Shown one piece after another: positions 3,150 to 36,429 of a DNA stretch of 64,000 nucleotides (position 1 is the first letter of the stretch; every line of letters begins with the position of its first letter). Location of the stretch: contig CALSNA010000002.1 of NCBI GenBank assembly GCA_943787595.1, forward strand, positions 310,467 through 374,466, given 5' to 3'. A program made the translations under genes and the position numbers. The notes below the pieces were generated by a model. That model had not been told where the DNA came from. It searched no databases and was given only the letters and a program-made list of their open reading frames with translations. This stretch comes from an uncultured Pseudomonadales bacterium. Lineage in GTDB: Bacteria; Pseudomonadota; Gammaproteobacteria; Pseudomonadales; Balneatricaceae.

Positions 3150-3426
3150 ACGGAATTATAGTCGCTCGTGAACCACAATAAGGATTTGCGCTGCCAATGT
3201 TATACTGGTGGCGCAAATGCATTGAGCCAAGGCCTATCAACTTAACTCAAAAGGTCCCCGTGCCGGGTCATGTTGACCGCATTACTGAACTGACGATGAT
3301 GCAGAATGAGGAACTGCACCCATTGCATGAACGAAAATAACCAGCATTGCTTGAATTTCAACGTCCGAGGGATTGTTCTGGCATGCAAATGACGATTACG
3401 GATTGATCAATCAGCCCCACGGTAAT

Positions 3427-4134
3427 ATGACCGAACTAATCCAAAACCATTCAAATGACTTCGCTGACAAGCTGGCGTTAATCAACCAGCGTATTGCCAG
3501 AGCCTGTAGAAAATCGGGTCGTGAGTCAAGGCATATTACGTTGATTGCAGTCAGCAAGACCCAGCCATGGTCGAAAATAGTGGCTGCCTACCAGGCTGGC
3601 CAACGGCATTTCGGGGAAAACTATCTGCAAGATGCACAACCCAAAATAGTACAAAGTAGTAGCATGGGTATTGAGTGGCATTTTATCGGCAAGATCCAAG
3701 CTAATAAAACCCGCGCGATTGCCACTCATTTCAATTGGGTACACACCCTTGACCGGATCAAAATTGCTCAACGGCTCAATGATCAACGCCCGGTACATTT
3801 GCCTCCATTACGGGTATTTATCCAGGTTAATCTCAGCCGTGAGGCAAATAAGGCAGGTATTGACCTGATAGAGCTCTCTGATTTAGTTACACAGATGCAA
3901 CAACTGCCCCGCTTGCAATTGCAGGGCCTCATGTGTATCCCCATGGCAACCCGGAAGTTTGATACCCAGATTAAACCTTTCCAGCAACTGCAACAGGCGC
4001 AGGAAAGGTTGCAGACTAACTATTCACACCTGCAACAATTATCCATGGGCATGTCGGCAGATCTGGAAGCCGCTATTGTTGCTGGAGCAACTCACATTCG
4101 TATTGGCACTGACCTATTCGGTGCCCGCAACTAA
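3427..4134 (+). CDS. yggS: YggS-family pyridoxal-phosphate homeostasis protein
   Basis: Has the HITLIAVSKTQ (PLP lysine), HFGENYLQ, WHFIGKIQANK and LSMGMSADLEAAI motifs typical of YggS. I place the start at the internal ATG 3427 (MTELIQ...) rather than the ORF-track 3373. It lies immediately upstream of proC, as in many gammaproteobacteria. Confidence 0.85.
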   Translation: MTELIQNHSNDFADKLALINQRIARACRKSGRESRHITLIAVSKTQPWSKIVAAYQAGQRHFGENYLQDAQPKIVQSSSMGIEWHFIGKIQANKTRAIATHFNWVHTLDRIKIAQRLNDQRPVHLPPLRVFIQVNLSREANKAGIDLIELSDLVTQMQQLPRLQLQGLMCIPMATRKFDTQIKPFQQLQQAQERLQTNYSHLQQLSMGMSADLEAAIVAGATHIRIGTDLFGARN

Positions 4135-4144
4135 GGAACTACAG

Positions 4145-4963
4145 ATGTTAAAACAACCCGTTGTCGCTTTCATCGGTGCTGGCAACATGGCCCAGGCTAT
4201 CCTAAAAGGTCTGTTGGCACAAGATTATCCAGCTGACCACATCTGGGCCACCGCTCGCAGCCATGATCGCCTACAGCAATTGGCAACCACAACGGGCGTG
4301 CATACCACTCATGATAACCAAGCTGCCTGTCGGGCAGCCGATGTTATTGTGATGGGCGTAAAACCACAAATGATGGCCAATGTCACCCGTAGCCTAGCCC
4401 CTGCCATCGACAGCCAATTGGTGATATCGGTAGCAGCAGGTATCTTGCTGGATAGTCTGGAGAATTGGCTTAGTAAAGACACCGCGTTAGTGCGCTGTAT
4501 GCCCAATACACCATCACTGGTTGGGGCAGGGGCTGCCGGGCTGTTTGCCAACCAATCGGTCAACAGTGACCAAAAAGCCTGCGCTGAATATATTCTAACG
4601 ACTGTGGGCCTGGCCTTGTGGGTAACACAGGAAAATCAGTTGGATATGGTTACGGCGGTATCTGGCAGCGGCCCGGCCTACTATTTCCTGCTAATGGAAG
4701 CAATGATCGATGCTGCTCAGGAACTGGGTTTAGATCTGGATATCGCCCGCCAGTTAGTACTGCAAACTGCCCTAGGGGCCGCCACCATGGCCCACCAGAG
4801 TCAGTCTGAGCCAGCCCAGCTGCGCCAGGCTGTAACTTCACCCAAAGGGGTTACAGAACAAGCTTTGCGGGTTTTTGAACGGGGCCACTTTAAAGCCCTG
4901 TGCCAACAGGCAATGCTAACTGCTCAGGAACGATCTCGGGAACTGGCTGAACTGTATCGGTAA
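4145..4963 (+). CDS. proC: Pyrroline-5-carboxylate reductase
   Basis: The sequence from MLKQPVVAFIGAGNMAQAILKGL (Rossmann GxGxxA) through MPNTPSLVGAGA and SGSGPAYYFLLMEAM matches ProC. The ORF-track start 3959 overlaps yggS and is an upstream in-frame extension. Confidence 0.9.
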   Translation: MLKQPVVAFIGAGNMAQAILKGLLAQDYPADHIWATARSHDRLQQLATTTGVHTTHDNQAACRAADVIVMGVKPQMMANVTRSLAPAIDSQLVISVAAGILLDSLENWLSKDTALVRCMPNTPSLVGAGAAGLFANQSVNSDQKACAEYILTTVGLALWVTQENQLDMVTAVSGSGPAYYFLLMEAMIDAAQELGLDLDIARQLVLQTALGAATMAHQSQSEPAQLRQAVTSPKGVTEQALRVFERGHFKALCQQAMLTAQERSRELAELYR

Positions 4964-5543: not shown

Positions 5544-7406
5544 ATGCACTCTTTTAAGCATGTAAAATGGTCTACCCTATTAATTACAACAGCAGCTGTG
5601 CTATTGCCACTGACCAGCTTGGCTGGTTTGGGCAATGATATCGTGATTTCAGCCTCCCGTGTCGCCATGGCCAGGGTTGCTTCTGGAAATAGCGTTTCGG
5701 TACTGGATGCCAATTTTCTGAAACAGCATCAGATTCGTACCGTCAGCGATGCACTGCGGTTTGTTCCCGGTCTGGCCGTTCATCGCAGTGGTGGGCTGGG
5801 GACCATAGTTGAAGTACGTATCCGTGGTGCAGAGGCCAATCAGACTCTGGTGCTCATTGATGGCATCGAAGTAAACGATGTGGCCAGTGGTTCTTCTTTT
5901 GACTTCACCCGGCTGCTAAATCTGAATATTGAACGGATTGAAGTTTTACGTGGTGCCCAAAGCGCACTTTGGGGCAGTGATGCTATGGGTGGCGTAGTTA
6001 ATATCATTACCAAAATCGGTAACGGGAGAACCCGGATCAATGTAAATTTGGAAGCTGGCAGTTTTGGCACGCATCAGGAAACCTTTCGTATCAGTGGTGG
6101 CAGTGAACAATACAACTATACTCTAGCCAGTACGTTAATTAACACGGATGGTATTTCTGCTGCCAGTGCAGGAAGCGAAGATGATGGTTACGAAAATATC
6201 ACCGTGAACTTTAAAGGCAACCTGCAGGCCACTGAAAATATTGCCCTGGGTATCGTAACTCAGCGCACCAAGGACAAGGTTGAACGTGATGCAGAAGGTA
6301 AGGATAGCTCTGCCACAACTGATGCTGAACAAAACTTCAATCGCATTCATGTCAGCTGGGATACTCCAGACTGGCATCATGAAGCCAGTGTTTCAGATGC
6401 TGAAACACAGCGGGTCGCAGTTGATCCGACCTATAGCTCCAAGAACATTGGTTACAAACGCAAATATGCTTATCAGACCAGTTACGTTATGACCGATGCA
6501 AGCAATGACCAGCATCTAACCTTGGCGCTGGAAAGAGAGAATGAAAGACACGACACCAGCAGTAACAACACCAATGCCAGCAGCCGCAGCATCAATACCA
6601 ACAGTGCAGTAGCCGAATATGGCATCAATTTTAATGATACATATTACGTCAACCTGGCTACCCGCTATGACAACAACAGCATGTTCAAGGATAGTATGAC
6701 GCACCACATGAATGCATCTGGCTGGCTCAATGAGGCCGTGCGGTTACACACCAGTATGGGCAATGGCATCAAAAATCCCACTATGACTGAGTTGTTTGGA
6801 TACGGCCTGAGTTACACCGGCAATACCAATTTGCAGCCAGAAGAAAATTTCACGTGGGATTTGGGTGCTGAGTACTCATTTGCACATCTGGACGGTTACA
6901 TTGATACTACGGTGTTCCATAGCCGAATCGACAGCCTGATCTATTCAGCGGGCTCCAGCGCAACCAATCTAACTGACACTGCCCAAGTGCAAGGCATTGA
7001 ACTGAGCCTGGCGGTCAACCCAAATGATATATTGCAGTTAACGGGCAGTTATACCTATACCGATACCGATGACAGTACCGGAAAAGCGTTGCTGCGCAGG
7101 CCCCGTCATATGGGTAGTTTAAACGCTGTTTATCGGTATTCGGATCATACCAGTATTACCAGTGGGATAAACTATCATGGTACCCGAGATAACCAAGACT
7201 ATACTACGGGCGGATACAGTGGTACACGGGTTAACTTGCCAAGTTACATGCTGATGAATATGGCAGCAAATTACCGGTACTCCAATCAGATCGAGTTGTT
7301 TGGCCGCATTGAAAATGTGTTTAACACCCAATATGAAGAAATTGTAAATTATGGCACCAAAGGTAGAAGTGGCATGGTTGGCATTCGTTTTAGTGGCATG
7401 CCATGA
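5544..7406 (+). CDS. btuB: TonB-dependent outer-membrane receptor, BtuB-like (vitamin B12)
   Basis: Signal peptide MHSFKHVKWSTLLITTAAVLLPLTSLA. TonB-box-like DIVISASR. Plug motifs IEVLRGAQSALWGSDAMGGVVNIITK. Preceded by a cobalamin riboswitch. Start chosen at ATG 5544. Confidence 0.85.
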   Translation: MHSFKHVKWSTLLITTAAVLLPLTSLAGLGNDIVISASRVAMARVASGNSVSVLDANFLKQHQIRTVSDALRFVPGLAVHRSGGLGTIVEVRIRGAEANQTLVLIDGIEVNDVASGSSFDFTRLLNLNIERIEVLRGAQSALWGSDAMGGVVNIITKIGNGRTRINVNLEAGSFGTHQETFRISGGSEQYNYTLASTLINTDGISAASAGSEDDGYENITVNFKGNLQATENIALGIVTQRTKDKVERDAEGKDSSATTDAEQNFNRIHVSWDTPDWHHEASVSDAETQRVAVDPTYSSKNIGYKRKYAYQTSYVMTDASNDQHLTLALERENERHDTSSNNTNASSRSINTNSAVAEYGINFNDTYYVNLATRYDNNSMFKDSMTHHMNASGWLNEAVRLHTSMGNGIKNPTMTELFGYGLSYTGNTNLQPEENFTWDLGAEYSFAHLDGYIDTTVFHSRIDSLIYSAGSSATNLTDTAQVQGIELSLAVNPNDILQLTGSYTYTDTDDSTGKALLRRPRHMGSLNAVYRYSDHTSITSGINYHGTRDNQDYTTGGYSGTRVNLPSYMLMNMAANYRYSNQIELFGRIENVFNTQYEEIVNYGTKGRSGMVGIRFSGMP

Positions 7407-7844
7407 GCATACCTTGGAACCAAGTTGGGTTTAAGCCATCAACAGATCATGCATTAGCACTGAAGCAATGTCATTATATTACTCCAGACGTTTGGCAGGA
7501 CACCGCCTGGGCAGCCAAACATCCTCCTATCGCACAGCATGTAAAGCACAAATATGTATTCATGCAGGGATGAGAATGGGGATAACGGATGTAACTGTGG
7601 GCTGTCGCTGCGTTACCGCACGGACGTCAAGCACACTAAGAAAAAACAGGCGCTAGCCAGGGGTATTATGAAAAGTAGAGGGGATTTCTTTAAAAGTGGA
7701 CCCCCATCGTCTTTTACTTGCAAACCGGTCCCCTGAATTCACGTGGCCACATCATGATCTTATTATACATACACCATCCCTCCCCTACATAAGCACGGTA
7801 GGGGATTAACACGACCCAATTTGCTCCAGCAATGGCAATCTGCC

Positions 7845-8276
7845 TCATGCGTAAATGGCTGAAATGACCAGTGTTAAAATAACGATCCCTGTCACAACAC
7901 AGCGGGTCAGAAAATAGTCAACGCTGATGAGCGCAGCCTGAAGCAGCTTTTTGTCGATCAGTAACAAGACCAAGAAGCTGATTATGAATACAGCAAGCAA
8001 TAATTTAACAGTCAGGATTAAGAAGCTAATCCATAATAACACTGCATTTATGTTGCTAAATGTTGGCAGATATAAGCGCCATTGATCCTCTACATTTAAA
8101 TGCTGCCCCCAATGGGTACCCGCCATAAATGATGTGATGACAAGCGCGTACACACTGATTACTTGATCTGTGGGACCCAGTAAAGGAATGATGTGGATAT
8201 CAAGCACCATACAGAGCGCGCACAGGACAAATGGTAAGGCACCTGCGTAAGTTAGATATGGGTAAAGTCTTTTCAT
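7845..8276 (-). CDS. Small integral membrane protein (DUF3429-like)
   Basis: 143 aa with four hydrophobic segments. The N-terminal LTYAGALPFV resembles DUF3429 as I recall it. The family assignment is tentative. Confidence 0.55.
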   Translation of the reverse strand: MKRLYPYLTYAGALPFVLCALCMVLDIHIIPLLGPTDQVISVYALVITSFMAGTHWGQHLNVEDQWRLYLPTFSNINAVLLWISFLILTVKLLLAVFIISFLVLLLIDKKLLQAALISVDYFLTRCVVTGIVILTLVISAIYA

Positions 8277-8708
8277 ATCTTATATTTTATCACGATCAAG
8301 GGCCGAGGTTTTGCACTTGGACGATCATGCAAACTAAATTACGATGCCATTATCCAGAGTAAAATCTGGATAAATGTCTGAGTGTGGCAATCAGTTCATT
8401 ATCAACCCTCTGACAAATAAAAAGTGGCCCTGTAGAACATACCTTTACAAGCACAATAGGATATGAGCGACAACCACAGATAATACATGTGATCTGTGGG
8501 ATGCTATGTCGATCAAGATACCAATTCCCTGCCGAACAAAACGTATTTTTCAACGTGCTTAAGTTTACCTCTATCAATCCAATCTGGTAGATGATAAAGT
8601 GCATTTATTAATTGCTGGAGTATTTGCACCTATAGATATATCCCAGTGCCTGATAAATCCAACTGATCGTGGCTTGTTGCAGGCAAAAGACGGTACGGAA
8701 CCAGTACA

Positions 8709-9278
8709 GTGCAATCAATACAGATTTGGAACAGCAAAAGCAGCTATGGTCTGGTGGCAATATTGCTGCACTGGCTAAGCGCTGTGGCCGTAGTGGGTGC
8801 CTTTGCACTTGGCGTGTGGGTGACCCAACTGACCTATTATAACAGCTGGTATACACATGCCATTGATCTACATCACAGCATTGGCCTGTTACTACTGATC
8901 ACCATGCTGGGCCGCGTAACATTGCGAACCGTCAATGTAATACCTGACGATGAGGCTGGAATGAGCATAGTGCAACGCAAAGCTGCCCATGGCGTTCATC
9001 TGCTGCTGTATGTATTGGTATTTGTATCAATAGCCAGTGGCTATCTGATATCCACTGCCGATGGCCGTTCAATCGACCTATTTGGACACCTGTCCATTCC
9101 AGCCATTGTGACTGACATGCAGAATCAGGCAGATATTTCTGGTATTGTGCACTGGTACGTAGCACTAGCACTGATAATCCTGACAGGGCTGCACACACTG
9201 GCAGCGCTAAAACATCATTTTATTGACCGAGATCGAACCCTAAAGAAGATACTCGGTACAACCATTCCAACCTGCTGA
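8709..9278 (+). CDS. Cytochrome b561 family protein (CybB/YceJ-like)
   Basis: Four-helix membrane protein with conserved His positions (LLHWLSA, HHSIGLLL, HLLLYVL, HWYVALA). GTG start. Followed by yceI, as in the E. coli yceJ-yceI pair. Confidence 0.8.
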   Translation: MQSIQIWNSKSSYGLVAILLHWLSAVAVVGAFALGVWVTQLTYYNSWYTHAIDLHHSIGLLLLITMLGRVTLRTVNVIPDDEAGMSIVQRKAAHGVHLLLYVLVFVSIASGYLISTADGRSIDLFGHLSIPAIVTDMQNQADISGIVHWYVALALIILTGLHTLAALKHHFIDRDRTLKKILGTTIPTC

Positions 9279-9306
9279 TGTAATTGAAGCAACGGGAGCA
9301 TGATTC

Positions 9307-9885
9307 ATGAAAATAAAAATTCTTTCCACTACTTTACTGGCCGCTACCATTGTATTGTCTTCACAGGTCGTTGCTGAAACATACGATCTGGACACCAAGG
9401 GTGCCCATGCATCGATCCAGTTCCGCATTCAGCATCTGGGTTATAGCTGGCTGCAAGGCCGTTTCAATACCTTTGGCGGCAGTTTTGAATATGATGAACA
9501 AGATCCAGACAGCGCCTCTGTACAGGTTGAAATTGATACAGCCAGTATTGATTCCAACCATGCAAGAAGAGACAAACATCTGCGTAGTAAGGATTTTCTC
9601 AATGTAAGCGAGTACCCTAAAGCCTATTTTGAGAGCACTTCCTTCAATGAAAACAGTGATGGAACCACAATACTAACAGGTGATTTAACCCTGCATGGAG
9701 TAACTAATCCAGTGACTATCAACGTTGAACATATTGGCCACGGGTCCGATCCTTGGGGTGGATATCGCCGCGGTTTCGAAGGAACAACACGGATTTCTTT
9801 GAAGGATTACGACATCAACTATAACCTTGGACCTAAGTCCAAAGAAGTAGAACTGAGTCTCTCTATCGAAGGTATTCGCCGCTAA
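9307..9885 (+). CDS. yceI: YceI-family periplasmic polyisoprenoid-binding protein
   Basis: Signal peptide followed by YDLDTKGAHASIQFRIQHLGYSWLQGRFNTFGGSF ... HARRDKHLRSKDFLNV, the characteristic YceI lipocalin-like motifs. Confidence 0.85.
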   Translation: MKIKILSTTLLAATIVLSSQVVAETYDLDTKGAHASIQFRIQHLGYSWLQGRFNTFGGSFEYDEQDPDSASVQVEIDTASIDSNHARRDKHLRSKDFLNVSEYPKAYFESTSFNENSDGTTILTGDLTLHGVTNPVTINVEHIGHGSDPWGGYRRGFEGTTRISLKDYDINYNLGPKSKEVELSLSIEGIRR

Positions 9886-10403
9886 CGCATCCCTGACCAG
9901 ATAAAACGCGTGCCAATGCATTGATGGCAATGACGCATAAGGCACTGTCGCAGGATTGACTGGAAAGATAACAGGGGTGAAAAGTAAACCCCTCCCACTA
10001 CCTATACCACTGGTAAGCATCTGACTTTATAAAGCGGATGCCTCGGCAATATCTATTGAGGTTCAATTCTGGCGTTTGAATGACCCTGGTGGTTCGCTTA
10101 AAAGCTAATCGGCAATTGTCTGCCTTCGGGCATTCAGACCTGATTTAGTCAAAGCACTGACGTGAACTGATAATATGCAAAGTAACCTAACCCCATGTAT
10201 GCAGGACTAGATAATCTGTTTAATCAATGCACTGCAAACGCTCATTTAAGGCTCATAGCATGCTTTCAAAATCTGCCCAAATATCCGCTCTTTTTATGAC
10301 TTGGATGGCTGACAGTGCCACTCATTGAGTCATTTTTGCAAACAAATCACCCGGCGGTTAAGGCGTTTCAAAGCACCGAGTGTGCTTTCAAGGTTCTGGT
10401 TGG

Positions 10404-10955
10404 CTAATCTGTTTTTTCTATTACCAGGGTTATTTCACCCACTTTAAAGCCCCATTTAGTCATTTCGGTGCGGTTGATTAAGCGCGTATCATCAAGCTGA
10501 TACAGCCAATCGTTAAGATCAATTTGCCATGATTTACCATTGACTTCAATTGCCAGGGTATAATGCCAGTTGAAGGCGAACCCCTGTCCGTAACCAAATG
10601 CATCCTGAGTAACATCATTAGCAGTGCCACTATAACTGCCATCACTATTTTTGGTGAGCGACCAGACACGTCGCTGGGTTTCACCATCGTCATAGTAAAA
10701 GTCTTCTGCCAATGTACCTTTATTGCCTTGCCATTGACCAATCAAGTCAGCATGGAAACGACGTATTACCTTGCCAGAGCGATCCTGTACCATACCATAA
10801 GCATTTAGTTTACCGTTAAAGAAAGACCGCATGTCGAATTCTGGCACACTGGATGTATAGTCCGGTAGCGTTGCAGCACAACTACTCAACATAATCATAG
10901 CCAGTGACAGTAATATGATGCGGTATATATGGGTTAAAAATGGATAAATACTCAT
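10404..10955 (-). CDS. DUF3833-family lipoprotein
   Basis: Lipobox LSSCA, then FFNGKLNAYGMVQDRSGKVIRRFHADLIGQW..GTLAEDFYYDDGETQRRVW ... DDWLYQ ... MTKWGFKVGEITLVI. This matches my recollection of DUF3833 proteins, which accompany photolyase/cryptochrome clusters. Confidence 0.7.
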   Translation of the reverse strand: MSIYPFLTHIYRIILLSLAMIMLSSCAATLPDYTSSVPEFDMRSFFNGKLNAYGMVQDRSGKVIRRFHADLIGQWQGNKGTLAEDFYYDDGETQRRVWSLTKNSDGSYSGTANDVTQDAFGYGQGFAFNWHYTLAIEVNGKSWQIDLNDWLYQLDDTRLINRTEMTKWGFKVGEITLVIEKTD

Positions 10956-21809: not shown

Positions 21810-22356
21810 TACTGAATAGCAAACCGGGATATGGCGGGGCACCCATACAATATCCGCCCTTCTAAATCCAGAGCATCCCGATATTCTATCTTGCAGATCA
21901 CCACCAGTACTTCCAGAATAGAGATGTTGGTAATTAGGAAATGCCCAATATAAGGGAGCACATCGGCCTCCAGTGAGATCCAGACCCTTTGGACATGACC
22001 CTGGCTCCAGCAGCACTATTTATGCTGCCAACATTCTCTGGTCTGATGCCAGAAGGAATTTTCAGCAGTGCGTCTGGTAATATGATGTTACTTTATCTCT
22101 GCGGGATCTCTGCGGAGTCCAGCTGATTGCTCAGGTTGAGCCGGGCCTGATCTCTTGCAGTTCTGGCCGGAGCCAGTGACACTTCAGGGTACACGCCCAG
22201 AGCCAGGGTTTTTTTCTTGCCAGCAAAGCAGTATTTTAGTCGCCAGTATCGGGAGCAGTTGAGTTGTACCAGCAGGTGCAGGCCAGCGCTATCGGCCAGT
22301 TTATAGGGTTTGTCTTTGGGCCAGGCCTGTTTAACGGTGGTATTGGGCAGTGGCAT
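21810..22356 (-). pseudogene. Truncated, frameshifted P4-type tyrosine integrase (N-terminal part only)
   Basis: ORF 22093-22356 (MPLPNTTVKQAWPKDKPYKLADSAGLHLLVQLNCSRYWRLKYCFAGKKKTLALGVYPEVSL...) is near-identical to the N-terminus of the intact integrase at 34963-36180. DNA homology continues to about 21810 in broken frames. The catalytic C-terminal domain is absent. Confidence 0.85.
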
Positions 22357-22506
22357 TGGGGGTACATTTATGGAGCCATGTTATTCGTACCCCAAATACC
22401 CATGGATGACAATAGACACTAGTGGACAGTAATAAAAGAATATCCAAAAAAAATCCCGTAAAAACGGGACTTTATGGACGATTATGGATGCTACTGGTTT
22501 TTAATT

Positions 22507-22521
22507 TGGTGCCCAAGAGAG
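22507..22521 (-). other. attL-like partial copy of the tRNA-Leu 3' end (left junction of the intact island)
   Basis: TGGTGCCCAAGAGAG here versus TGGTGCCCAGGAGAG at 36343-36357 inside the tRNA (14 of 15). Similarity stops abruptly at 22521/22522. Confidence 0.75.
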
Positions 22522-22582
22522 CACACACAAGTAGATATTAATGTGCTGATTTATATGATTATTTATATTTTAATATAAATTT

Positions 22583-26642: not shown

Positions 26643-26668
26643 AAAAAAGAGCCACCAAATAAGCAGCT
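26643..26668 (-). terminator. Candidate intrinsic terminator after the C39 gene
   Basis: The reverse strand reads AGCTGC-TTATTTG-GTGGCT followed by CTTTTTTGC. The stem is 6 bp including two G-U pairs, followed by a T6 run. It lies 33 nt downstream of the C39 stop. The stem is weak. Confidence 0.35.
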
Positions 26669-26700
26669 CAAAGGCTAGGTTTACTAGCTAAGTGTGTTCT

Positions 26701-27318
26701 TTATCTGAGGGCTAGGGGCAATGTTGGCAGACTGCTTACTACAGGAGACTTAAAAAAGTCATTATTTGTGGTTGTATGGCCGTTTGGCACAATCACTAAA
26801 GCCTTCCCTTTTAGCGTATCTTTTACTTGCCATAGCTCATTGAATTGATGAACCGTGAATGTCCTGTTCCCCCACGATGGGTCTGCCAATGAAACGTGTG
26901 TATTGCTGATACCCTTTAGCACTGAAAAATGGTCGTTGTCTCGATATTTGAGGTAGAGCAATGCCGGTATTTTGATCTTCTTCAGGGTGTCAAAATCAAT
27001 GGATAGTCCAACTGCATTAAAGCCAAACTTTGTTGCTGCTTGTTTTAAATCTGAGAATGAAGCCGTATTGTCATTTGCTATTTCGTTAACAATCTTGATT
27101 ATGTCTCTTTCGTAGACTTCAGCACCATAATAGAATCGTAGAATGGTAGCCAAGGCAGCCGAACCGCAAGACTCGTCAAGGTCTTGTTTCTCGATCTTTT
27201 GATCTCTAATTGATTTCCAAGATTGAATAGTATTATGTATGGGCGTAGACGATATTAGGTTGTATGCCTTAATCTGGCTGGATAGCAGTAGTAGTATTAA
27301 AGCGACATATCTAGTCAT
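26701..27318 (-). CDS. Free-standing, signal-peptide-bearing C39-family cysteine peptidase (predicted periplasmic)
   Basis: Sec-type N-terminus MTRYVALILLLLSSQIKA. C39 catalytic motifs: Q-x5-C (KQDLDESCGSAALATILRFYYG), His (NDHFSVLKGI) and Asp (SLADPSWGNRTF). There is no fused or adjacent ABC transporter. Confidence 0.8.
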   Translation of the reverse strand: MTRYVALILLLLSSQIKAYNLISSTPIHNTIQSWKSIRDQKIEKQDLDESCGSAALATILRFYYGAEVYERDIIKIVNEIANDNTASFSDLKQAATKFGFNAVGLSIDFDTLKKIKIPALLYLKYRDNDHFSVLKGISNTHVSLADPSWGNRTFTVHQFNELWQVKDTLKGKALVIVPNGHTTTNNDFFKSPVVSSLPTLPLALR

Positions 27319-27617
27319 TGTTGTTGATCTGGTGGGTAAATTATTGTGTCCATACCAGCAGGGAACATAAATGATAATAAGCCAGGTTTAGTTAATGTCA
27401 CTCCAACTCTTATTGCAGGCGGTTCACCATCATAATGACAATCTGCTACTACCCCACCAATTCCCTCTACCTCATAATCGAATAAACAGTACAGTGATGT
27501 TTTTTCTAAATTTCTTTTCATTTCTGAGTAGGGTATTGATTCAGCTTTTTTTAATGCGTCAGACAATACTTGTCTTTCTTCACTAGTTAGTTTTTCTAAT
27601 CTACTTCCATAACTCAT
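27315..27617 (-). CDS. Hypothetical 100-aa cytoplasmic protein (no recognisable motif)
   Basis: Intact ORF with no signal peptide or TM segment. Its stop overlaps the C39 start (ATGA, 27315-27318), indicating translational coupling. Confidence 0.6.
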   Translation of the reverse strand: MSYGSRLEKLTSEERQVLSDALKKAESIPYSEMKRNLEKTSLYCLFDYEVEGIGGVVADCHYDGEPPAIRVGVTLTKPGLLSFMFPAGMDTIIYPPDQQQ

Positions 27618-27637
27618 AGCATCAATCTATATTAATT

Positions 27638-27675
27638 ATTGCCGACCTATATCCATTCTAATATAAATCGGCAAT
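27638..27675 (-). other. Hairpin directly after the 115-aa gene (possible attenuator or RNA-stabilising stem)
   Basis: ATTGCCGA (27638-27645) and TCGGCAAT (27668-27675) form an 8-bp perfect inverted repeat with a 22-nt loop. It starts 8 nt after the stop at 27683. No T-run follows. Confidence 0.35.
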
Positions 27676-27682
27676 GTAAGTT

Positions 27683-28030
27683 TTACCTCCAGAGCGCTAT
27701 ACGGCGATGTCGTTGTGATCCCTTTACACCTACTCTATAAGTAGTTAGCTGGAGATGTGTTCTTCTACCTTGAAGCAGCCCACTTGTAAAGTTATGGTGT
27801 GCAGAATGATAACCAAAAACGTAACCACGACTACCAAATCTAAAATGTCGATTCCAGTAGTCGCCCTTGGTGCTATCCATTTCTTGAGGCGTTAGCAGCT
27901 CAATCTGGCTTATATCGGCAGAACTACCGAAGGCATAAGCTAGACTATCATTGGCACTATTGGCCATTGCCGCATGACTGCCAAACACAGTCATTAGCAT
28001 GGTTAATAGTACAATTTTAATGTGTTTCAT
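27683..28030 (-). CDS. Sec-exported 115-aa protein: signal peptide, acidic pro-region with a double-glycine-leader-like motif, and a highly basic, aromatic 58-59-aa C-terminal part
   Basis: MKHIKIVLLTMLMTVFGSHAAMA / NSANDSLAYAFGSSADISQIELLTPQEMDSTKGD / YWNRHFRFGSRGYVFGYHSAHHNFTSGLLQGRRTHLQLTTYRVGVKGSQRHRRIALWR. I recognise no family. Confidence 0.65.
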   Translation of the reverse strand: MKHIKIVLLTMLMTVFGSHAAMANSANDSLAYAFGSSADISQIELLTPQEMDSTKGDYWNRHFRFGSRGYVFGYHSAHHNFTSGLLQGRRTHLQLTTYRVGVKGSQRHRRIALWR

Positions 28031-28101
28031 AATTGAAGATCCTTTATAATATCTCTCGATTAATTTGGTGTTAATCTATGTTTTTATGAGTTAATCACCT
28101 C

Positions 28102-28746
28102 CTATGGGTTTAGCTTGTGAAGCCATTTCAGACTGATGTTAGAACCTGTATAGTCGCTAATATCGGTCTGAACCTTTAAATTCAATGTCCTTTCTTCGCT
28201 CACTGAATAAACTATGCCCAGCTCTAGTTGTGTCTGTGATGCGCGAGTGCTATTTTCACTGGATTGAATGAAGTTAAGATTTAAGCCAGCACTTAGGCTA
28301 ATTTCATTGTTCACAGCAAAGCCAAGGGCTGGATTGATAAACCATAAGTCATTAGTGGTTGATCTTTGAATGCCTGTTGTAGTCGATAACACTATGGGAT
28401 CACTACTTAGATAAGCTGTTAAGCCGACCATCTTAGTTTTTGTTTTGGATAGCTCCGCAAATCCCAGTAAGGCAGTTGTGTTACTACCAGAGAATAACTT
28501 GCTGTTGATTCCAATAGTTGCATTGTCTCCATTGGTGGCACGTGCATACGCTTCCGTATTGTTCGTTAGTCCATAGCGTATACCTAGAGCCTGACTCGTA
28601 TTGTTCGCGCTGTAAGCGTTAAAATAGTCCGCACTCAGCTCTATAGTTAAATCATTCTTATCAGGTAGAACATCTATTTCCAAGGGTAAATCGGCCATAG
28701 CATGGCTTGATATAGCCAGTAGTAAAATATACCTAAGTTTTCTCAT
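28102..28746 (-). CDS. Small outer-membrane beta-barrel protein (about 12 predicted strands)
   Basis: Signal peptide MRKLRYILLLAISSHAMA. Repeated alternating-hydrophobic strands follow (LTIELSADYFNAY, ALGIRYGLT, TALLGFAELS, MVGLTAYLS, LWFINPALGFAV, ISLSAGLNLNFI, QLELGIVYSV, LNLKVQTDIS, ISLKWLHKL). Confidence 0.65.
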   Translation of the reverse strand: MRKLRYILLLAISSHAMADLPLEIDVLPDKNDLTIELSADYFNAYSANNTSQALGIRYGLTNNTEAYARATNGDNATIGINSKLFSGSNTTALLGFAELSKTKTKMVGLTAYLSSDPIVLSTTTGIQRSTTNDLWFINPALGFAVNNEISLSAGLNLNFIQSSENSTRASQTQLELGIVYSVSEERTLNLKVQTDISDYTGSNISLKWLHKLNP

Positions 28747-29324
28747 AGGTCACTTTGTCTTGTTGTGTTCTTGTTTTAAAGAAGATACTTACTTCAGCAA
28801 TCCATTGATCCAGGTTTGTGAAGTCATGGCCTCCACCCTGAATACTGATATGTTCGCAATTCGAGTAATAGCCAATTACATCTCGAATAATTAAGCTCGT
28901 CTCCAGTCTGCGCCAGTACCAGTATATTTTGTGGCTTGTTGATCTCTATTGCTTCCGACTCTAGAGACTTGAGCTGTTTAACAGCATGGGGTAAGCCCCA
29001 CTCTGACGGCAATTTACCTAATCCGTTAAGTACGTCTCCCTGCTTTAGAATGGGGCTTTCACTGGGAAACACTGATGGATTAAGCAATACAACCGGAATA
29101 TTCAACTTTTGAGATAGTATAGTCGCATAGAAGCCACCTAATGAATGGCCCACTAGTGCAACACGATCCCCCATATCCTTAATGCGTCCTTTTATGCAGT
29201 CCATAGCATGAAAGGGCATGACAGGGACGCGCATCACCTCAGCTCCCAGGGAGTCAATTAATAAATTTCCTTTTCTACCGTTTGGCCGACCCAGGAAGCC
29301 ATGAAGGTACAATATCTTAATCAT
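28733..29324 (-). pseudogene. YqiA-like alpha/beta-fold serine hydrolase (UPF0227), reading frame broken near 28890
   Basis: MIKILYLHGF ... VALVGHSLGGFYAT (nucleophile elbow) ... LAQTGDEL. In the +1 frame it continues IIRDVIGYYSNCEHISIQGGGHDFTNLDQWI (catalytic His). This is colinear with E. coli YqiA (QQTGDEVLDYRQAVAYY...GGNHAF). The listed ORF 28824-29405 ends prematurely, before the His. The restored frame ends at 28733, overlapping the next gene start by 14 nt. Confidence 0.65.
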
Positions 29325-29506
29325 GGGAATGACCCCCACGACTAAACATTGTAAAGATGATGTTTGTTGATGGTGCATGACTGCAACAAAACCTAGCCGT
29401 TGCAATCAGCAAATTGATATACTCGCTGATAGCCATATCTGATGTCCAATATCAGTGTTTGGTTAGGGTCAGGCAAAAGTTAGCGGCTTTTGCTTGGCCT
29501 GTTTTC

Positions 29507-29535
29507 GTTATACGTTGTTCTATTTGCTTTGTCAA
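29507..29535 (-). promoter_or_regulatory. Near-consensus sigma70 promoter facing the five-gene module
   Basis: The reverse strand reads TTGACA (29535-29530), a 17-nt spacer, then TATAAC (29512-29507). It lies about 175 nt upstream of the YqiA-like ATG. A 7-bp hairpin (GCAAAAG/CTTTTGC, 29473-29493) lies in the predicted leader. Confidence 0.45.
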
Positions 29536-29791
29536 TAAATTATGTATGGGTCTCCACAAGCCCCAGGATAGCCTTCAGGCGATTTTTTATAATGCAGCCA
29601 TACTAAAAATTAAGGTAATAGCCTTTTAACTTTCCCGTAAACTACCCGTCCTTCAGAGCCATTAATAGACTCGTTTTGTAAGCTAAACCTACCCCCAACC
29701 TTCCCCCTAATTTTAGTTTTACGCTAACGCTTCGTTAAATTGTGATCGATGTGTAAATACCCCGCTATTAACACAGTCTCGAGGTAGAGAG

Positions 29792-30619
29792 TTAAGCCAC
29801 ATTTAGGTACTCAATGGGTGTCATATCATTAAGCCCGTCATGTGGTCGTTCGTGGTTGTATAACTGTATCCAGTCATCCGTGATTTGCCTGACCTCATCG
29901 AGGTTGCTGAACAGATATAAATCCAATACATCTTCTCGGTAAGTGCGATTCAATCGCTCAACATAACCATTTTGGTAAGGCTTACCGGGCTTGATAAAAT
30001 CAATGTATATATGGTGATGCTCAGCCCAGGCAGCTAACTCATGCGCGGTAAACTCAGGCCCATTGTCACAACGTATGCGCTCTGGATAACCTCGCCATGC
30101 TGCAATCTGATCCAGGTAGCGAGTGACTCGGTCAGCTGTGATGCCAGAGTTAATATCGATACCTAACACTTCTCGATTAAAGTCATCCATAACATTAAAG
30201 GTTCTAAAGCGATGGCCGTGTTGCAGTACATCACTCATAAAATCCATTGACCAACACACATTTAAAGTCGGTGGCACATTCAACGCCAGCGGGTGTCGAC
30301 TGGGTAAACGCCGCTTGGCTTTTCTTCTCATATTGAGCTTAAGCTGCAAATACACGCGATAAATACGTTTGTGGTTCCAGTGATGACCTAAAGTTCGTAA
30401 TCGCTTGCGACACTTCGGAAAACCCCAACGAGGATGTGTATCCACCAGGGCCAGCAGTGTATCAATCAGTTCAGTATCATCACAGCGTATGGGCTGATAG
30501 TAATAAGCTGTACGACTCAAAGCCGCTGCCTGACAACACAGCACAATGCTGGCAGCAAATTGCTCACGTAGCTGATCAACCCAGGCGCGACGATCCGCTG
30601 CTGACCTTACAGCTTTTTT
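29792..30619 (-). CDS. IS3-family transposase OrfB (DDE integrase domain), expressed by -1 frameshift from orfA
   Basis: THPRWGFPKCRKRL ... WSMDFMSD ... DNGPEFTAHELAAWAEHHHIYIDFIKPGKPYQNGYVERLNRTYRE, the DDE/rve motifs. The frame is open upstream to the slippery AAAAAAG at 30613-30619. Confidence 0.85.
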   Translation of the reverse strand, partial: KKAVRSAADRRAWVDQLREQFAASIVLCCQAAALSRTAYYYQPIRCDDTELIDTLLALVDTHPRWGFPKCRKRLRTLGHHWNHKRIYRVYLQLKLNMRRKAKRRLPSRHPLALNVPPTLNVCWSMDFMSDVLQHGHRFRTFNVMDDFNREVLGIDINSGITADRVTRYLDQIAAWRGYPERIRCDNGPEFTAHELAAWAEHHHIYIDFIKPGKPYQNGYVERLNRTYREDVLDLYLFSNLDEVRQITDDWIQLYNHERPHDGLNDMTPIEYLNVA

Positions 30620-30867
30620 ATAATGTCCTCTTGCATTTGGCTTTTTAAGCTCAAGTCAGCATACATCTGCTTTAGACGGCGGTTCTCGTCTTCCAGCTCT
30701 TTAAGTCGTTTAACATCCGAGGCTTCCATACCACCGTACTTACTTCGCCATTTATAGAATGTGCTGTTACCAATGCTGTACTTGCGGCACAGTTCTGGGA
30801 TTGGCGTACCCACCTCAGCTTCCTTCAATATCCCGACAATCTGGGTTTCGTTCAGTCGTTTGCTCAT
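30607..30867 (-). CDS. IS3-family transposase OrfA (HTH)
   Basis: MSKRLNETQIVGILKEAEVGTPIPELCRKYSIGNSTFYKWRSKYGGMEASDVKRLKELEDENRRLKQMYADLSL is the classical IS3 OrfA. It ends IIKKL-stop across the A6G heptamer. Confidence 0.9.
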   Translation of the reverse strand: MSKRLNETQIVGILKEAEVGTPIPELCRKYSIGNSTFYKWRSKYGGMEASDVKRLKELEDENRRLKQMYADLSLKSQMQEDIIKKL

Positions 30868-30939
30868 CGTAAAAACTCCTTCGCATCGTTCGCGATTATA
30901 GTATTTTCTACGTTTGAGCTGTGCTAGTTTAGGGGGTAC

Positions 30940-31447: not shown

Positions 31448-31492
31448 GAGAGATAGGAGAGATAGGAGAGATAGGAGAGATAGGAGAGATAG
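31448..31492. repeat. Five perfect tandem copies of the 9-mer GAGAGATAG (iterons)
   Basis: Read directly: GAGAGATAG x5 with no spacers, at 31448-31492. This lies between the DUF3987-like gene stop and the bPH gene start. Confidence 0.9.
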
Positions 31493-31672
31493 TAGTATTA
31501 ACAAGGCTTGTAAACCTCTCCACAAATGTCGACATAAGAGAGATATGATTTTACCAATTAGTTATCTCGCCAATAATCTCGCCATAATATCTCTTGCTAC
31601 AGGCTAGGTAAATAAAGCTTTATCGCTATATCGCCTATCTCGCTATAGTTAAGTGTGGTTTGTTATCTCTCA
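31448..31672. other. Putative satellite replication origin (opposed iteron sets flanking an A/T-rich spacer)
   Basis: Besides the 5x array there is a degenerate copy AGAGAGATATG (about 31527-31537). Inverted copies are TTATCTCGC (31562), AATCTCGC (31575), ATATCTCT (31588), CTATCTCGC (31635) and TTATCTCTC (31664). It lies immediately 3' of the replication genes. Confidence 0.5.
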
Positions 31673-34962: not shown

Positions 34963-36180
34963 CTAGTGGCCGGGATTTAACTGATTGCCAGCTAATTTAG
35001 TGCTGTATTCCAGTTGTTCCAGATAGTCCGCCCACCACTGCATCATGGTGGCCCGGTCTTTCAGGTACTCCGCATGCTGGGTGTAGGCTCCACGCACCTG
35101 ATTGCGCTCCAGATGGGATAACTGGCGCTCAATGGCATCCGGATTAAAGCCTTCTTCATTCAGGATGGAGGATGCCGTGGTTCTAAACCCATGAGCAGTA
35201 GCCCGGCTCTTATACCCCATACGATACAGGGCATAGGTCATGGTATTCTCCGATATGGGTTTCAATCGACTTCGCTCCCCGGGAAATAACAGGGCATACT
35301 GGCCCGATATGGGCTTCAGTGCCACCAGTATGTCCATCGCCTGTTGGGATAAGGGCACCAGATGCTCAGTGCCCATCTTCATCCGTTCACCTGGAATGCG
35401 CCAAAGTCTGGCCTCCAAATCAAATTCGTGCCACTGGGCAAAGCGACACTCCCCGGGTCGCACAAACGTCAGCAACAGCAAGCGCAGGGCCAGCCGGGTG
35501 ACTTGATGGCCGTCGTAATGACGCAGTTGTTTCAGGAATTGCGGCAGCTCGGCTCTGGGTAATGCTGCACGGTGCTGTTTCTTTCTGGTTTTTAATACGC
35601 CCGTTAGTTCTGTGGCCGGGTTATAGCTGGCCCGTCCAGACTGAATGGCAAACCGGAATATGGCGGTACACCGCTGCAATATCCGCCCCGCCACATCCAG
35701 AGCATCCCGGTGTTCTATCTTGCGGATCACCGCCAGTACTTCTGGAGTGGTGATGTCGGTAATGGGGCGATGCCCCATGTAAGGGAGCACATCTGTTTCC
35801 AGTGAGGTCCAGACCCGCTGGGCATGGTCTTGACTCCAGCGGCCATGTTGATGCTGCCACCATTCCCTGGCCTGATGCTGGAAGGAATGTTCAGCATTGC
35901 GTCGGGCGGTATGCTTTTGCTGCTTTTTTATCTCTGAGGGGTCTACCTGATTGCTCAGGTTGAGCCTGGCCTGATCTCTTGCGGTTCTGGCCCGGGCCAG
36001 TGACACTTCAGGGTAAACCCCCAGGGCCAGGGTTTTTTCCTTGCCGGCAAAGCGGTATTTAAACCGCCAGTATCGGGAGCCGTTGGGGTGTACCAGCAGG
36101 TGCAGGCCGGCACTGTCGGCCAGTTTATAGGGTTTATCTTTGGGGCGGGCCTGTTTAACGGTGGTGTTGGTCAGTGGCAT
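34963..36180 (-). CDS. int: P4-type tyrosine integrase (DUF4102 arm-binding domain plus phage integrase catalytic domain)
   Basis: N-terminal KDKPYKLADSAGLHLLVHPNGSRYWRFKYRFAGKEKTLALGVYPEVSLARAR. Catalytic residues are in LLLLTFVRPGECR, HGFRTTASS and VRGAYTQ. It is adjacent to a tRNA gene. Confidence 0.92.
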   Translation of the reverse strand: MPLTNTTVKQARPKDKPYKLADSAGLHLLVHPNGSRYWRFKYRFAGKEKTLALGVYPEVSLARARTARDQARLNLSNQVDPSEIKKQQKHTARRNAEHSFQHQAREWWQHQHGRWSQDHAQRVWTSLETDVLPYMGHRPITDITTPEVLAVIRKIEHRDALDVAGRILQRCTAIFRFAIQSGRASYNPATELTGVLKTRKKQHRAALPRAELPQFLKQLRHYDGHQVTRLALRLLLLTFVRPGECRFAQWHEFDLEARLWRIPGERMKMGTEHLVPLSQQAMDILVALKPISGQYALLFPGERSRLKPISENTMTYALYRMGYKSRATAHGFRTTASSILNEEGFNPDAIERQLSHLERNQVRGAYTQHAEYLKDRATMMQWWADYLEQLEYSTKLAGNQLNPGH

Positions 36181-36210
36181 TGGGGGTACATTGATGAAGC
36201 CATGTTATTT

Positions 36211-36240
36211 GTACCCCAAATATACCCCCAAATACCCCCG
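36211..36240. repeat. (G/A)TACCCC(C)AAA direct repeats next to int (candidate arm-type sites, right arm)
   Basis: GTACCCCAAATATACCCCCAAATACCCCCG lies between the int start and the tRNA. The motif is shared with 22583-22604 and, degenerate, 22391-22410. Confidence 0.5.
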
Positions 36241-36342
36241 GATGGCAATAGACATGAATGGACAGTAATAAACGAACATCCAAAAAAAATCCCGCAAAAA
36301 CGGGATCTTATAGACGATTATGGATGTTACTGGTTGTTAGTT

Positions 36343-36429
36343 TGGTGCCCAGGAGAGGACTTGAACCTCCACGGCCTTGCGGCCACTAGCACCTGAAGCT
36401 AGCGTGTCTACCAATTTCACCACCTAGGC
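36343..36429 (-). tRNA. tRNA-Leu (anticodon CAG)
   Basis: The reverse complement is GCCTAGGTGGTGAAATTGGTAGACACGCTAGCTTCAGGTGCTAGTGGCCGCAAGGCCGTGGAGGTTCAAGTCCTCTCCTGGGCACCA. It folds as a cloverleaf with a long variable arm, anticodon loop TTCAGGT and encoded CCA. Confidence 0.92.

Follow-up and report, generated by a model that had tools for sequence, protein, structure and literature searches.

Our analysis concerns five minus-strand genes in a 64,000-nucleotide (nt) stretch of contig CALSNA010000002.1 from an uncultured Pseudomonadales bacterium (hereafter the window). These genes form a real mobile operon, which probably encodes a bacteriocin-like polymorphic toxin and its immunity protein together with a two-step export apparatus of its own, and which is carried as cargo by a satellite at tRNA-Leu resembling a phage-inducible chromosomal island (PICI). 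An earlier note, drawn from the letters of the window, had singled the genes out as a discrete, functional-looking, envelope-directed unit whose composition matched no described system. The first half of that claim holds: all five open reading frames (ORFs) lie where the note had placed them, the block 26643-29519 is a single unit shared at 88% identity with other mobile elements, and the four core genes are under purifying selection (ratio of nonsynonymous to synonymous substitution rates, dN/dS, 0.08-0.21). The second half does not: a stand-alone periplasmic C39 peptidase working with an outer-membrane (OM) barrel has been published for the Fap (PMC5557850) and nap (PMC11798529) systems, and plasmid p250 carries an annotated hemocin locus built in the same way. 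The module is thus matched, at the level of homology, by nap, Fap and haemocin, an outcome that the note itself had named as telling against its proposal.

Judged by its sequence, the window module belongs to the NapF/NapP–HmcD/C39 class of Sec-dependent export systems, which is known but poorly characterised. The operon combines a signal-bearing C39 peptidase that retains an intact Q/C/H/D set, a barrel of the FapF family and, encoded between the two, a leader-bearing substrate; the substrate in turn joins a conserved N-terminal trafficking region to interchangeable C-terminal cargos, in the manner of polymorphic toxins. Relatives were surveyed at one genome per species, giving 544 loci with relatives of the peptidase; 80 of these were retrieved (designated by L numbers, with P numbers for proteins), and 69 have a C39 gene. 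Neighbouring genes were compared by tblastn, phmmer and all-against-all clustering, with mutually consistent results. A barrel homologue lies upstream on the same strand in 49 of the 69 C39 loci, and small signal-peptide proteins are encoded between barrel and peptidase in 27 of them when counted by family, or in 33 when found by motif search; any further gene family recurs in at most 4. The conserved core thus comprises barrel, precursor and peptidase, accompanied by hypervariable small genes. The earlier expectation that the five genes would co-occur as a module was borne out in part: all five stand together in close relatives and the core three in distant genomes, but the esterase gene lies outside the conserved core.

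Signal peptides were judged from hydropathy and AXA rules. N-terminal hydrophobic cores are present in the C39, 115-amino-acid (aa) and 214-aa proteins, and the 100-aa protein has none. The peptidase, 205 aa long with its signal peptide, matches Pfam Peptidase_C39 (3.8e-22), and its residues Q45, C51, H130 and D146 are invariant among 23 C39 homologues, all of which begin with a hydrophobic N-terminus. No ABC or membrane-fusion-protein (MFP) domains occur among the island genes. These observations agree with the earlier description of a protease that has a complete catalytic set, carries no transporter domain and is predicted to be Sec-exported. Its identity to NapP is 43% (E 2e-46; NapP sequence from the supplement of PMC11798529). 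PDB matches are to the C39 domains of PCAT1, LahT and ComA (~1e-9), and PHROGs returned for the peptidase only a weak match to an ABC-transporter C39 domain. The best NCBIfam matches are FapD (1.5e-22) and FilB (3.3e-20), with scores far under the family cut-offs (80 vs 330 bits and 73 vs 475 bits, respectively). The gene evolves with a dN/dS of 0.18.

The 214-aa protein, whose signal peptide ends between AMA and DLPL, aligns end to end with the long NapF at 24% identity (BLASTP, E 1e-14). A profile of the barrel family has FapF as its sole match in the PDB (E 3e-6), and HmcD aligns with the same profile at a hhalign probability of 98.9% (E 1e-17). About 12 segments of alternating hydrophobicity can be counted by eye, which is compatible with the 12 strands of FapF. 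The window barrel is 70-100 residues shorter than most relatives, a shortfall split over five separate gaps; since the length of 214 aa is kept in all close relatives and dN/dS is 0.10, it is a compact variant rather than a truncation. We predict that the 214-aa protein is a compact barrel of the FapF/NapF/HmcD family that serves as an export channel.

The 115-aa protein reads as a precursor in which a signal peptide (residues 1-23) is followed by an acidic propeptide (residues 24-57; isoelectric point, pI, 4.05) and a mature part of 58 aa (7.0 kDa, pI 12) with 6 His and zero acidic residues. The propeptide runs ...LAYAFG...IELLTPQEMDSTKGD and is followed by YW; in the leader notation, LLTPQEMDSTKGD abuts YW at the leader/cargo junction, and the precursor around the predicted junction reads ...LAYAFGSSADISQIELLTPQEMDSTKGD and then YWNRHF... 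The corresponding motif, L[ST]xxEMxxxxG, set at a constant distance past the Sec signal, occurs in 42 ORFs from 33 loci, against a chance expectation that we estimate at roughly two matches (six-frame translation of ~0.8 Mb). Its position profile is L-12 S-11 E-8 M-7 T-4 E-3 G-2 [AEDG]-1, and positions outside the search pattern are also kept: T-4 in 36/40, E-3 in 30/40, A/E/D/G at -1, with +1 being aromatic or hydrophobic. Within the propeptide region, dN/dS falls to 0.03. Håvarstein and colleagues reportedly described classical double-glycine leaders in substrates of C39 peptidases and of ATP-binding cassette transporters that contain a peptidase (PCATs). The leader register of the window family (L-12, E-8, M-7, T-4, G-2, X-1) is this classical double-glycine register.

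Beyond the leader, the precursors diverge. The Sec-signal/propeptide region is conserved in the eleven closest homologues (P0111-P0121), which are near-invariant over residues 1-57 and then continue into three C-terminal cargo types. Aligned as DNA, the window and the L082 copies lose their homology at 27864, i.e., at the leader/cargo junction, and regain it at 27324, the start of the peptidase gene; this gap spans both the cargo and the 100-aa gene, which were thus exchanged together. Each cargo type comes with its own type of downstream gene, even in distant taxa (L082 vs L023, L082 vs L037). A leader that is kept while the cargo and the next gene are swapped is polymorphic-toxin behaviour.

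The window cargo bears the motif GYHxAHHxF...RxHLQ...GVKGS, for which the domain consensus is HxAHHxF...G.RxH[LI]Q...W[RK]xGVKGS...R[ILV]P. When 1.84 billion representative proteins were searched with a profile of the mature domain, 58 were recovered, among which about a dozen are leader-bearing precursors; in several others, the domain sits at the extreme C-terminus of RHS/YD-repeat proteins, past the DPxG core motif (P0151, 2558 aa; P0170, 1682 aa; P0165; P0149; P0154). The His-rich domain of ~45 residues that ends these RHS/YD proteins (HxAHHxF...RxHLQ...GVKGS...RIP) is unannotated, and together with the small gene that follows it in L088 the domain looks like an undescribed polymorphic-toxin/immunity pair. 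Neither the toxin-domain profile nor its 36 relatives matched a Pfam toxin family, and no PDB match reached significance (best E 0.11). An AHH/HNH-type nuclease, suspected from the AHH motif, found no support in the Pfam and PDB searches. Ten longer leader-bearing cargos from other loci likewise contained no Pfam toxin domains, and a GIY-YIG motif guessed by eye in the L041 cargo was unsupported by the Pfam search.

The gene exchanged with the cargo encodes a 100-aa protein that has no signal peptide and a pI of 4.75. Only five homologues were found in a search of 5.8 billion clusters. Structure prediction and fold comparison, among the checks that the earlier note had outlined, gave a confident AlphaFold2 model (predicted local distance difference test, pLDDT, 84) with three helices followed by a four-stranded sheet, and no PDB match at E <= 0.001. 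The protein is 31% identical to one encoded behind a toxin of the same type in L023. In L088 (1694-6959), the one RHS locus examined for a downstream partner, an 84-aa gene overlaps the end of the gene for RHS toxin P0170, and its product is related to the L023 proteins (BLASTP 5e-9). Position, co-swapping, charge complementarity and weak homology make a cognate immunity protein the best interpretation of the 100-aa product.

These components suggest the following mechanism. The 115-aa precursor would cross the inner membrane via Sec, its signal peptide being cut after residue 23; peptidase and barrel, which carry signal peptides as well, would take the same route. In the periplasm, the C39 peptidase would recognise the leader LLTPQEMDSTKGD and cleave after G-2/D-1 (G56-D57), a position predicted from the leader register, thereby stripping off the acidic propeptide. 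The cargo of 58 aa and pI 12 would then exit through the compact FapF/NapF-family barrel, as homology to FapF, NapF and HmcD suggests. Toxin reaching the cytoplasm of the producer would be neutralised there by the acidic 100-aa protein, which would place the target in sensitive cells inside the cell. Cells lacking the 100-aa protein would be killed at this intracellular target, a step to which both the sharing of the cargo domain with RHS proteins and the cytoplasmic location of the partner point. Speculatively, the satellite could benefit from the cassette as competition or addiction cargo, the element thereby gaining a competitive or addictive advantage for its host. The earlier note had offered, as one possible role, a route from Sec via periplasmic C39 to an OM barrel for a processed toxic peptide, and this proposal is favoured by the homology of peptidase and barrel, by the leader motif and by synteny.

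Several points weigh against this interpretation. Cleavage, export and killing are, for the window module, all steps that we infer. The -1 residue of the leader is an unusual Asp, instead of Gly, Ala or Ser, so the exact bond cleaved is uncertain. Neither a fold nor an activity is known for the cargo domain, and the alignment of the 100-aa family with the L023/L088 proteins (hhalign E 3e-4, probability 40%) is a weak but positive link. A single-sequence model of the barrel reached a pLDDT of 34, and the count of 12 strands rests on sequence pattern and distant homology. The frameshift in the esterase gene may act polarly on translation of the barrel, because a 14-nt overlap normally couples the two genes. 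Lastly, the published gonococcal Nap peptides showed no antibacterial activity and promote autolysis instead, and membership of the export class is therefore no proof of a role in competition.

The closest published relative is the nap island of Neisseria, whose products are the C39 peptidase NapP, the barrel NapF (homologous to FapF), small peptides and NapI, a putative immunity protein (Poncin et al. 2025, PMC11798529). Periplasmic cleavage followed by export through NapF was proposed there as a model only, and the gonococcal Nap peptides are cationic, have no detectable antimicrobial activity and promote stationary-phase autolysis (PMC11798529). Among our loci, L039 (N. lactamica) is the nap island itself (NapP 95%, NapA 92%). 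As in the window, genes for a signal-bearing stand-alone C39 protein and a FapF-related barrel enclose small genes for peptides and for membrane- or immunity-like proteins, the whole lying on an island acquired horizontally, and the long NapB of N. lactamica carries a Sec signal and a LAELSQKEMKETEGEW leader. The window differs in its cargo, which is unrelated, His-rich, basic and shared with RHS proteins; in its soluble cytoplasmic partner, compared with the small membrane proteins of nap; in the length of its barrel (214 aa vs ~285 aa); and in its esterase gene and PICI-like carrier. The gonococcal function, moreover, was published as autolysis, not competition.

Some details of the nap island deserve separate mention. 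In L039 (3979-4691), the published peptide NapA (95 aa, at least 2 hydrophobic helices) directly follows the leader-bearing toxin gene, a position held in other loci by small membrane immunity-like proteins, and the EMKETEG leader of the long NapB is not marked as a cleavage site in PMC11798529. The comparison suggests that in the gonococcus the nap island may have decayed from a toxin–immunity locus, a reading that bears on how the Nap peptides are to be interpreted. N. gonorrhoeae DSM 9188 additionally has a second C39 gene and a small hydrophobic ORF between pyrBI and pyk (L049, 5669-6543), with no barrel nearby. Reading of the translations ruled this out as the nap island, the true one being L039, and the site appears to be a separate, degenerate locus.

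Haemocin is known from experiments as a bacteriocin of H. influenzae type b and of H. paragallinarum, reportedly through the work of Murley et al. in 1998 and Terry et al. in 2003. The RefSeq annotation of Avibacterium paragallinarum plasmid p250 (NC_005245.1) lists HmcD, a C39 peptidase and an AAA ATPase along with a "hemocin structural protein" and a "hemocin immunity protein." The structural protein has a Sec signal and then ...VLSQKEMSEVKGG followed by ARSP... HmcD is homologous to the 214-aa family, the C39 peptidase is stand-alone, a leader (...LSQKEMSEVKGG, then A) comes after the Sec signal, the immunity gene lies directly downstream of the structural gene, and the locus resides on a small mobile replicon. 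In contrast to the window, the hmc locus has an AAA-family ATPase gene (L089 2922-3629, between the C39 and structural genes), which is missing in most other loci as well; its cargo is Cys-rich and unrelated, its peptidase is ~30% identical, and its -1 residue is the canonical Gly.

In the Fap system, FapD is a Sec-exported periplasmic C39 protein that is catalytically required and works with the trimeric 12-stranded barrel FapF (Rouse et al. 2017, PMC5557850), and the target of FapD was described as unclear in 2017 (PMC5557850). The window module shares with it the Sec-exported C39 protein in the periplasm and the dedicated, homologous barrel. The substrates of Fap, however, are amyloid subunits without an immunity gene, FapF has an N-terminal coiled-coil domain, and the substrate of FapD is undefined, unlike the obvious leader of the window family. 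The window peptidase failed the FapD equivalog test at the scores given above, the 115-aa protein (whose mature part is basic and His/Arg-rich) has no repeats such as the N/Q-rich ones of FapB/FapC, and no other Fap genes (FapA and FapE included) occur in the operon. Identity with Fap was ruled out by the FapD score and the lack of amyloid subunits.

Class II microcins and bacteriocins exported by PCATs share the peptidase fold and catalytic set, the leader logic (L-12, E-8, a hydrophobic residue at -7, G-2) and the pairing of a small cargo with an immunity gene. In the window, by contrast, the peptidase is unfused and signal-bearing, the leader is internal, after the Sec signal, and no ABC or MFP gene accompanies it on the island; processing is predicted to be periplasmic, with exit via a small barrel rather than TolC. 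The missing ABC/MFP genes and the internal leader ruled out identity with a PCAT system. Likeness to RHS/YD toxins lies in the common C-terminal domain of ~45 residues (HxAHHxF...RxHLQ...GVKGS...R[IL]P) and in the related small gene after it in L088, whereas delivery there is by an RHS shell, compared with the Sec signal and leader acting with C39 and barrel here.

The same five genes also occur on a circularly permuted, plasmid-like element of ~8.7 kb (L083-L085), which shares with the window island its iterons and a DUF3987 primase (79% identical) and in which a resolvase and ParA replace the integrase, TerS and Gabija. The unit is thus recurrent cargo of one small-replicon family, which appears to occur in two lifestyles. 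On one contig, L082, there are three copies of the module. Two of them are complete and stand head-to-head (5567-10618), meeting inside their esterase genes, so that both are 5'-truncated; the third (2579-4783) is partial, differs in cargo and partner, and has a frameshifted barrel (182 aa). A megablast search of all complete E. coli genomes with the module found nothing. A scan of 2.9 million viral contigs found one relative only, so the module is not typically phage-borne, and most of its homologous counterparts lie on chromosomes or small plasmids without phage context. C39 homologues are also present on small ColE1-like or mobilisable plasmids (L091, E. coli pSCU-111-4; L090, Acinetobacter pTR11_4; L092), where their neighbours are annotated as hypothetical. 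Annotation pipelines appear largely to overlook the class.

Positions in and around the operon are listed in Table 1. DNA homology to L083/L085 stops at 26643, and the hairpin with T-run proposed as terminator was recovered by scan at 26649-26669. The likely promoter TTGACA-17-TATAAC is present as the earlier note had read it: both hexamers are invariant in 4 module copies (window, L082, L083, L085), and the spacer and upstream flank have diverged. A consensus scan missed it because that scan demands T at the last -10 position. Directly downstream of the -10 box lies a 16-pair inverted repeat whose stem is kept in 4/4 module copies and whose loop is variable; this hairpin could be a regulatory structure of the 5' untranslated region or a terminator of the opposite strand. 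At the operon's opposite end, the C39 and 100-aa genes overlap by 4 nt (ATGA).

Table 1. Coordinates of the operon, its regulatory elements and associated island features in the window.
Feature	Position	Strand	Basis or remark
C39 peptidase gene	26701-27318	-	Sec-exported stand-alone type (NapP/FapD), predicted leader peptidase
100-aa gene	27315-27617	-	acidic cytoplasmic protein, putative cognate immunity protein
115-aa toxin precursor gene	27683-28030	-	ORF
Sec signal peptide of toxin precursor, residues 1-23 (...HAAMA, then NS)	27962-28030	-	hydrophobic core and AXA site
Acidic propeptide with double-glycine-type leader, residues 24-57	27860-27961	-	leader motif
Predicted mature toxin, 58 aa	27686-27859	-	profile search
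214-aa barrel gene, FapF/NapF/HmcD family	28102-28746	-	predicted export channel
Hydrolase ORF as read	28824-29405	-	UPF0227/YqiA match
Esterase gene, UPF0227/YqiA type, +1 frameshifted	28733-29324	-	alignment to intact orthologues
Likely operon promoter, TTGACA-17 nt-TATAAC	29507-29535	-	sequence reading
Hairpin in operon 5' leader	29466-29500	-	inverted-repeat scan
Intrinsic-terminator-like hairpin and T-run	26643-26669	-	scan; coincides with end of shared cassette
Decayed fragment of second C39 gene	21592-21708	+	tblastn
Tyrosine integrase	34963-36180		adjoins tRNA-Leu
IS3-family element, HTH_Tnp_1 orfA and rve orfB (29792-30544)	29740-30900 approx.	-	between bPH_2 gene and module

The first gene of the operon was described in the earlier note as a YqiA-like hydrolase with GHSLGG, GDE and GGGHDF motifs, its restored frame overlapping the next start by 14 nt, and all of this can be read in the sequence. 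The product matches UPF0227/YqiA at 5e-16 (Pfam, NCBIfam). A single extra T near 28887 shifts the frame relative to intact orthologues of 196 aa; once restored, the frame reads ...GDELNYRDVIGYYSNCEHISIQGGGHDF... (IQGGGHDF) and ends 14 nt within the barrel gene. The esterase is absent from all distant loci and confined to the close lineage, and in 3/6 copies it is damaged (frameshifted in the window, 5'-truncated in two L082 copies) with the other genes intact. It is a lineage-specific passenger outside the conserved core, already inactivated in the window.

The module sits in an island of ~14 kb integrated at tRNA-Leu (36343-36429), which also encodes a tyrosine integrase, a DnaG-Zn-ribbon/DUF3987 primase, a bPH_2 protein, a P22-gp3-type TerS and Gabija. 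AlpA and the DUF3987 primase are found on the same contig, and at least 4 overlapping copies of the 9-bp iteron GAGAGATAG lie upstream of the primase at 31448-31495 (also at 817-886 in L083). With an integrase at a tRNA attachment (att) site, an AlpA-type regulator, a primase with iterons, TerS and no structural genes, the island is satellite-like and resembles a PICI-type phage satellite. Its placement beside Gabija and near TerS, which the earlier note had reported, is corroborated by PADLOC-DB 2.0 (GajA 2e-204, GajB 1e-118) and by phrog_606 (TerS, 7e-34). So is the decayed C39 copy beside an older integrase remnant: tblastn aligned it with 28/63 identities (E 7e-7), with an internal deletion and loss of the catalytic His region, and it adjoins a duplicate of the integrase and att region. 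This duplicate is a direct repeat of ~700 nt (21811-22524 vs 35640-36360, 80-89% identical) that spans the 5' end of the integrase gene and the tRNA-Leu att region. What remains at 21811-22524 comes from an older island that stood in tandem at this site, and the C39 fragment was retained with it. The IS3-family insertion sequence (IS) lies outside the conserved promoter and splits stretches that directly adjoin other genes in the related L083.

Other explanations were weighed against export of a toxin with cognate immunity. Because the gonococcal peptides showed no antimicrobial activity, the main rival is a self-directed lysis as in nap, whereby the processed cationic peptide would act on the envelope of its producer and could aid satellite release or DNA spread. 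The autolysis promoted by the gonococcal nap island, the closest published relative (PMC11798529), the extreme cationic character of the window cargo (pI 12) and the carriage of the module on a phage-dependent element are all compatible with such a role. Yet the cargo domain is common to RHS polymorphic toxins, the small co-varying gene that always stands behind the cargo is a signature of toxin and immunity directed against other cells, hemocin, whose architecture is the same, carries the annotation of a bacteriocin plus immunity protein, and an envelope-lytic peptide needs no acidic cytoplasmic partner; we therefore regard self-lysis as unlikely. We consider it improbable, and more so than self-lysis, that the module provides envelope-level anti-phage defence or superinfection exclusion, a role that the earlier note had entertained. 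In its favour, by the logic of defence islands, the genes adjoin Gabija, occupy the accessory slot of a satellite-like island, with its origin on one side and TerS on the other, and have a decayed second copy at the same att site. None of the five proteins found a match in PADLOC-DB 2.0 at E<=0.01, in a search that did match GajA and GajB; relatives are mostly chromosomal or on small plasmids outside any phage context, with the single relative among 2.9 million viral contigs; and a secreted toxin with immunity accounts fully for the architecture.

A decaying, non-functional remnant, silenced by the esterase frameshift and the upstream IS3 element, would explain why a gene normally coupled in translation to the barrel gene carries a +1 frameshift, why an IS3-family element lies immediately upstream and why another C39 copy is already in decay. 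Nevertheless, the four core ORFs are intact and constrained (dN/dS 0.08-0.21), promoter and terminator are intact and outside the IS, and other copies with a truncated esterase keep intact core genes, which leaves this reading as improbable as anti-phage defence. The remaining proposal, and a very improbable one, is biogenesis of Fap/Fil-like fibres or amyloid, with the 115-aa protein as a surface-fibre subunit. It draws on the ranking of FapD and FilB as best NCBIfam matches of the peptidase and of FapF as a match of the barrel family, but both peptidase scores fall far under their cut-offs, counterparts of FapA/B/C/E are missing, and the cargo is without amyloid repeats, only 58 aa long, very basic, hypervariable between close relatives and common to RHS termini.

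Considering a toxin–immunity operon with its own export route as the preferred interpretation, we lean, with some reserve, towards a broader view in which the window, haemocin and nap loci represent one widespread, unnamed two-step pathway (Sec, periplasmic C39, FapF-type barrel) for polymorphic toxins of diderm bacteria. The leader L-12 S E-8 M-7 T-4 E G-2 X-1 would then give periplasmic C39 peptidases their long-sought substrate signature, the cargo and its partner would represent a new small toxin fold common to RHS proteins and a new immunity family, and satellites would carry the cassette as competition or addiction cargo beside defence genes. Specific to the window are the new toxin domain with its putative immunity family, the minimal barrel, the dispensable esterase and carriage by a satellite beside Gabija.

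Ultimately, this comparison removes a false call of a new system and places the known examples within a much larger class, almost all of whose members are annotated as hypothetical proteins. This class supplies a substrate motif for periplasmic C39 peptidases that is clean and testable, and it represents a Sec-dependent, ABC-independent route across the OM for bacteriocin-like toxins. To this class the window adds an uncharacterised toxin domain of ~45 residues common to RHS proteins and a putative immunity family, and it provides an example of a satellite-like island bearing an offensive toxin cassette beside the defence system Gabija.

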